Below are positions 9,012 to 9,335 of a stretch of 64,000 nt of DNA, piece after piece. Within the stretch, counting starts at the first letter, position 1; every line of letters starts with the position of its first letter. The position numbers and the translations under genes were made by a program. Origin of the DNA: Escherichia coli (GTDB lineage: Bacteria > Pseudomonadota > Gammaproteobacteria > Enterobacterales > Enterobacteriaceae); the NCBI RefSeq assembly GCF_003334405.1, contig NZ_QOWM01000001.1. One strand, written 5' to 3'. The notes beneath the pieces were generated by a model. That model was not told where the DNA came from. It did no database searches and saw only the letters and a program-made list of their open reading frames with translations.

Positions 9012-9074
9012 TGCTTGGGTCCCCACGCGTTACTTGCGGTAGAAAAATAAAATTCGGCGCAATTCTAACAGGGA

Positions 9075-9090
9075 AAGCAAACGTTTGCGA
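9075..9090. promoter_or_regulatory. PurR operator (pur box) upstream of purMN
   Basis: AAGCAAACGTTTGCGA is a near-perfect palindrome matching the PurR consensus ACGCAAACGTTTGCGT; lies about 65 bp upstream of the purM start in the purM/upp divergent region. Confidence 0.7.
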
Positions 9091-9335
9091 GACTGCTTTA
9101 CACAACCTTTTTGCACGTCTTTTCCCCAGGCGCGCGGCGAAAGAAGACTTGTGCCAGGGTAAAGGTTAGTTTTCGGATGGAATAATCTTCTTTCATAACC
9201 ATCTGAATATAAAATAACTTTATCTCAAACCGTTATCATTTTGACTAAAGTCAACGAAAAGAATATTGCCGCCTTGAAGAAAGGAGGTATAATCCGTCGA
9301 TTTTTTTTGTGGCTGCCCCTCAAAGGAGAAAGAGT

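Follow-up and report, generated by a model that had tools for sequence, protein, structure and literature searches.

Genomic context and features of the two pur loci

The window, a stretch of 64,000 nucleotides of Escherichia coli DNA, contains the divergent region between purM and upp and, further along, the region between bamC and purC. Both intergenic stretches (9012-9339 and 32378-32592) are 100% identical to the corresponding sequences of E. coli K-12 MG1655 (NC_000913.3), which run in reverse-complement orientation, so that experiments on K-12 transfer to this DNA base for base. The bamC-purC segment 32300-32700 was matched in all 5426 of the 5426 complete E. coli genomes compared, many of them with 100% identity, and its flanking genes are annotated as bamC and purC. 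Each of the two intergenic stretches carries a 16-bp pur box, here called box 1 (K-12 NC_000913.3 2,621,118-2,621,133 by coordinate mapping) and box 2 (2,597,772-2,597,787). The features of the two loci are listed below; coordinates are those of the window.

7974-9011, minus strand: purM coding sequence with a GTG start at 9011 (open reading frame list; K-12 annotation of purM at 2,621,197 in NC_000913.3)
9055, minus strand: purM transcription start (K-12 U00096.2 2,619,175; 5' UTR of 44 nt; Kim et al. 2012)
9062-9070, minus strand: extended -10 element of purM, TGtTAGAAT (Kim et al. 2012; Mendoza-Vargas et al. 2009; window sequence)
9075-9090, minus strand: pur box (PurR operator) of purMN, box 1, reading AAGCAAACGTTTGCGA on the window strand and TCGCAAACGTTTGCTT on the purM strand
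32384-32410, plus strand: intrinsic terminator of bamC, a hairpin at 32384-32405 followed by a T-run ending at about 32410 (terminator scan)
32412-32420, plus strand: extended -10 element of purC, TGaTATGAT, with TG at 32412-32413 and the hexamer TATGAT at 32415-32420; it adjoins the bamC terminator, ends 7 nt before the mapped start and is shared by Citrobacter, Pseudocitrobacter and others
32421-32436, plus strand: pur box (PurR operator) of purC, box 2, ACGCAAACGTGTGCGT (ChIP-chip motif; conservation across genera)
32427, plus strand: purC transcription start, an A (K-12 U00096.2 2,595,803 = NC_000913.3 2,597,781; Kim et al. 2012)
32427-32589, plus strand: 5' untranslated leader of purC, 163 nt (Kim et al. 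2012)
32472-32574, plus strand: putative Escherichia-lineage insertion of about 103 nt in the leader, exact junction ambiguous (alignment, direct repeat, box-to-ATG distances)
32490-32523, minus strand, opposite to purC: single REP element at +64 to +97 of the purC leader (consensus match)
32590-33303, plus strand: purC coding sequence (open reading frame list; annotations)

Identification of the pur boxes

A pur box was defined as a 16-bp imperfect palindrome scored against the consensus ACGCAAACGTTTGCGT, with a central CG and the half-site cores GCAAAC and GTTTGC. Exactly two matches with at most two mismatches occur in the 64 kb (0.09 expected; none of 100 shuffled sequences reached two), namely box 1 with two mismatches and box 2 with one. 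Box 1 is perfectly palindromic over its inner 12 bp, GCAAAC|GTTTGC. It lies between the purM start and the upp ATG (9337, plus strand), at exactly the position given in a preliminary description of this DNA, which had called it a near-perfect palindrome. The same description had proposed a second box at 32411-32426; the sequence it gave is real, and the coordinates were 10 nt off. It had also seen correctly that this box directly follows the bamC terminator, and its distance of 165 bp to purC is approximately right: the purC ATG lies 169 nt from the start and 153 nt past the end of box 2.

With three mismatches allowed, a third match appears at 11959-11974, and the count is then not beyond chance. 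This sequence, ACGCGCGCGTTTGCGT, has all three mismatches in the left half-site core and lies inside the open reading frame 11387-12133 (probably hda); as it is intragenic and has no ChIP support, it was rejected as a chance match. The weak motif CCGGAAGCGATTGCCT at 14372-14387 is situated not in intergenic DNA but about 46 nt from the 5' end within the open reading frame 14327-15388, presumably perM/yfgO according to the K-12 gene order. It falls under a PurR ChIP-chip peak labelled yfgO/yfgC (Cho et al. 2011, PMC3159470).

Occupancy by PurR

Boxes 1 and 2 are almost certainly the established E. coli PurR operators of purMN and purC, and as such already known. They are the type example itself, at the same loci and without any difference, in reverse complement to the K-12 map. 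PurR is the purine repressor of the LacI/GalR family and uses hypoxanthine and guanine as corepressors. The pur boxes of E. coli purMN and purC were reportedly described in 1990 by He, Smith and Zalkin, by Meng et al. and by Tiedeman et al.; the last are also said to have reported the purC sequence together with primer extension.

Both 16-mers, correctly called PurR boxes in the preliminary description, appear in the ChIP-chip table of Cho et al. 2011 (Table 1, PMC3159470) for a K-12 sequence identical to the one studied here. The purM-purN motif TCGCAAACGTTTGCTT is given at 2,619,140-2,619,155 and the purC motif ACGCACACGTTTGCGT, the reverse complement of box 2, at 2,595,794-2,595,809, each under a PurR ChIP-chip peak. 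The log2 enrichment is 2.08 with adenine and 0.98 without for purM-purN, and 2.08 with and 1.52 without for purC; these values are among the highest in the table. In the same paper, purC and purMN belong to the genes of IMP biosynthesis that PurR with hypoxanthine represses (PMC3159470). Occupancy by PurR, the sensitivity of binding to adenine and both transcription starts are documented by published data on the identical sequence.

Promoters and transcription starts

For purM, Kim et al. (2012; PMC3415461, supplementary file 2) give a transcription start at 2,619,175 with a 44-nt UTR and an upstream sequence that ends in ...TCGCAAACGTTTGCTTTCCCTGTTAGAATTGCGCCG. Mendoza-Vargas et al. (2009) report an independent 454-based start at -40 with the -10 element GTTAGAAT and a scored PurR site. 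When the published start is placed on the window sequence, box 1 covers positions -35 to -20 of purM.

For purC, Kim et al. (2012; PMC3415461, supplementary file 2) give a start at 2,595,803 with a UTR of 163 nt and the upstream sequence ...CTGATATGATACGCAAA, ending in ...TTTTTTCTGATATGATACGCAAA. Placed on the window, this start lies inside box 2, which covers -6 to +10. The position rests on one genome-wide dataset with 24 reads. In the accessible parts of the Mendoza-Vargas et al. 2009 supplements purM is present and purC absent, and those of Ettwiller et al. 2016 contain neither the purC start coordinate nor the gene name.

A -35/-10 scan of the region upstream of purC gave no canonical promoter and no recognisable -35 element; the scanner made no call because the place of a -35 element is taken up by the loop of the bamC terminator hairpin, where no match exists. 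The blank scan fits a candidate extended -10 promoter, without proving one. TGaTATGAT of purC and TGtTAGAAT of purM are alike and, judged by their sequence, resemble extended -10 (TGn) sigma-70 promoters: both combine TGn with a -10 hexamer matching in five of six positions, a weak or absent -35 and a start 7 nt downstream.

Since the mapped purC start lies inside box 2 and the UTR measures 163 nt, the promoter sits at the box, and the leader includes the REP. The question raised in the preliminary description, where the purC promoter is located and whether the REP belongs to the leader, is in effect answered by these published data. The placement of the box, which had been called unusual there, is so only in appearance: the odd-looking layout of purC is a compact extended -10 promoter set against the terminator and overlapped by the box, followed by a leader lengthened by a lineage-specific insertion that carries the REP.

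The purC leader and its REP element

The REP noted earlier between box 2 and purC was recovered at 32490-32523 with three mismatches to the E. coli REP consensus GCCGGATGCGGCGT-NNN-CGCCTTATCCGGCCTAC, with 0 matches expected by chance. It resembles known REP/BIME elements in its match to the 34-nt consensus, its imperfect palindrome, its extragenic and transcribed location and its multiple copies. It differs from them in being a single element in a 5' leader, whereas the commoner position of REP/BIME elements is 3' or intercistronic. The arms of the hairpin, 32495-32507 and 32510-32522, are 85% complementary and pair in both the minimum-free-energy and the centroid fold. Per E. coli genome, the median number of places matched by a query containing the REP was 6, and one extra match among those listed covered 32490-32524 only. 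The REP-bearing leader is present in 5406 of the 5426 complete E. coli genomes.

The consensus occurs in four copies in the window, of which the leader copy is the one between bamC and purC. The others are found at 37197-37230, a perfect consensus match, and at 61936-61969 and 62036-62069; the latter two lie on the minus strand, 100 nt apart, and may form a BIME-like cluster.

Folding of the leader gave z = -1.48 with the REP hairpin as the sole notable structure, and a specially structured leader was rejected on this basis. An Rfam scan of the region upstream of purC returned a sub-threshold match to the REP-derived family naRNA4 and one spurious viral match; as no family reached the threshold, a riboswitch or another known cis-regulatory RNA was rejected as well. 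A leader peptide was likewise discarded, the open reading frames of the leader being short and unconvincing. A literature search for purC together with REP gave no relevant match.

Comparison across enteric genera

A PurC search of genome contigs yielded 80 loci, each from a different species; purC of Salmonella was not among the 80. The identical 16-mer ACGCAAACGTGTGCGT, set in varying flanking bases, is shared by more than 20 species from several genera. It stands after the bamC terminator in Escherichia, Citrobacter, Pseudocitrobacter, Enterobacter, Leclercia, Phytobacter, Kluyvera, Pluralibacter, Siccibacter and others. The more distant Serratia, Erwinia and Providencia have diverged purC boxes with two to four mismatches.

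No pur box with up to five mismatches was found within 400 nt upstream of purC in several Enterobacterales, among them Photorhabdus, Yersinia, Rahnella, Pectobacterium, Budvicia and some Cedecea. In these organisms purC may have a different arrangement or regulation.

In E. coli and E. albertii the box begins 168-169 nt before the ATG, in most relatives 65-68 nt before it. Alignment with the short-leader relatives assigns the difference to one block of about 103 nt that contains the REP and is found in Escherichia only. The block is bounded by a direct repeat, CGGTAATTCGCAC (32459-32471) and CGTTAATTCACAC (32562-32574), with a spacing of 103 nt, and because of this repeat the exact junction is ambiguous. 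By eye, together with a shared GATTTTA, the repeat reaches about 21 nt; Citrobacter and Pseudocitrobacter have a single copy. As the relatives have the short leader and Escherichia the additional 103 nt or so, the REP would have entered an existing short leader downstream of the operator. We infer that the block is an insertion into the purC leader in the Escherichia lineage.

The repeat of about 13-21 nt around the block looks like a duplication of the insertion target, something that descriptions of REPs do not normally include.

Six Escherichia sequences were compared over the purC upstream region. No differences occur in the terminator, in the -10 element with the box or over the last 58 nt or so of the leader. 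The substitutions gather immediately behind the box and in the REP segment, where they break pairs of the REP stem without compensation.

The sequence next to the box differs between genera. In Escherichia, Citrobacter, Pseudocitrobacter, RIT691, Pluralibacter and Kluyvera, TGaTATGAT or TATAGT stands directly upstream of the box and a poor hexamer (CAGAAA or TGAAAA) downstream. The upstream -10 element is missing from Enterobacter, Leclercia, Phytobacter and several others, which have a hexamer matching in five of six positions 2-5 nt downstream of the box (CATAAT, TAGAAT, TAAAAT or GATAAT). This pattern suggests that the -10 element may have switched sides of a fixed purC operator between genera, the start being mapped in E. 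coli only. Should the downstream hexamers serve as -10 elements, the operator of that group would occupy about -30 to -15, as opposed to -6 to +10 in E. coli.

Proposed regulation and significance

By the established corepressor mechanism, a PurR-corepressor dimer binds each of the two 16-bp boxes when purines are plentiful and excludes RNA polymerase. At purMN the repressor occludes polymerase over the -35 and the spacer; for purC, judging from the position of the box, steric exclusion would act over the start site. The purC transcript carries the 163-nt leader with its single REP, which is most likely a tolerated passenger and not a required control element.

The PurR sites of purB and purR, which block elongation (Cho et al. 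2011, PMC3159470), share the repressor and the box consensus with the operators described here, and the purC operator is itself partly transcribed, as it reaches +10. The purB and purR sites lie well downstream, inside transcribed or coding sequence, whereas the boxes of purC (-6 to +10) and purMN (-35 to -20) would block initiation.

The meaning of the two matches is small. The scan recovers genuine regulatory sites, which had already been mapped, verified by ChIP and placed relative to known starts. What this analysis adds is evolutionary: the lineage-specific REP insertion in the leader and the possible change of side of the -10 element. Both points, if confirmed experimentally, would be modest examples of cis-regulatory turnover.

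Alternative explanations

The reading of the inserted REP as a passenger draws on the six Escherichia sequences: substitutions that concentrate in the REP segment and break stem pairs without compensation point to a REP that is tolerated rather than required. The alternative is that the insertion is a functional post-transcriptional element acting on mRNA stability, premature or Rho-dependent termination, translation or protein binding, and would give Escherichia an additional level of purC control. In its favour, REP/BIME elements at other sites are known to influence mRNA decay and transcription attenuation, the hairpin of the REP dominates the leader, and the insertion is retained in nearly all E. 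coli genomes and in E. albertii; retention in 5406 of 5426 genomes is also compatible with a function. Against this stand, besides the substitutions in the REP segment, most enteric relatives, which regulate purC without the insertion, a leader fold that is not unusually stable, the lack of an Rfam family at threshold and the absence of purC from the text-form supplementary files of Adams et al. 2021, a mapping of 3' ends in 5' UTRs. We consider a functional REP unlikely. If it were true, purC of Escherichia would have a post-transcriptional layer of control that other enteric bacteria lack.

A further alternative places the true purC promoter beyond the REP, near the gene, and makes box 2 either a distant site or a roadblock to transcription running through from dapA-bamC. 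Box 2 ends 153 nt before the ATG and comes right behind a terminator, which looks odd for a promoter, the scan found no canonical -35/-10 pair there, and a PurR roadblock is known from purB (He and Zalkin 1992, as cited in Cho et al. 2011, PMC3159470). However, the sole start assigned to purC by Kim et al. 2012 (PMC3415461) is 32427, inside the box and 7 nt after TGaTATGAT, and a promoter scan between the REP and purC found no promoter-like site. The relatives, moreover, carry the same box 65-68 nt from the ATG and no REP, which makes a box-proximal purC promoter the ancestral arrangement. A promoter downstream of the REP is therefore very improbable, and the compact promoter at box 2 is retained.

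That box 1, by its location in the divergent intergenic region, is a shared operator which also controls the upp-uraA operon can hardly be maintained, as the upp start at 9299 is 209-224 bp away from the box, upp is served by a separate promoter (TTGCCG-16-TATAAT, 9266-9293) and the main text of Cho et al. 2011, including Table 1 of PurR-bound regions, makes no mention of upp (PMC3159470).

The upp start was placed at 2,618,931 with a 5' UTR of 37 nt by Kim et al. 2012 (PMC3415461). In the window this start is G9299, with eight consecutive T after it (GATTTTTTTTG), within the region 9266-9309. We take this region to be the known UTP-sensitive control region of upp-uraA, which acts by start-site switching and reiterative transcription. 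Just upstream of the -35 element of upp, about 45-58 bp upstream of the start, positions 9241-9254 form a perfect 6-bp inverted repeat, TTGACT-AA-AGTCAA.
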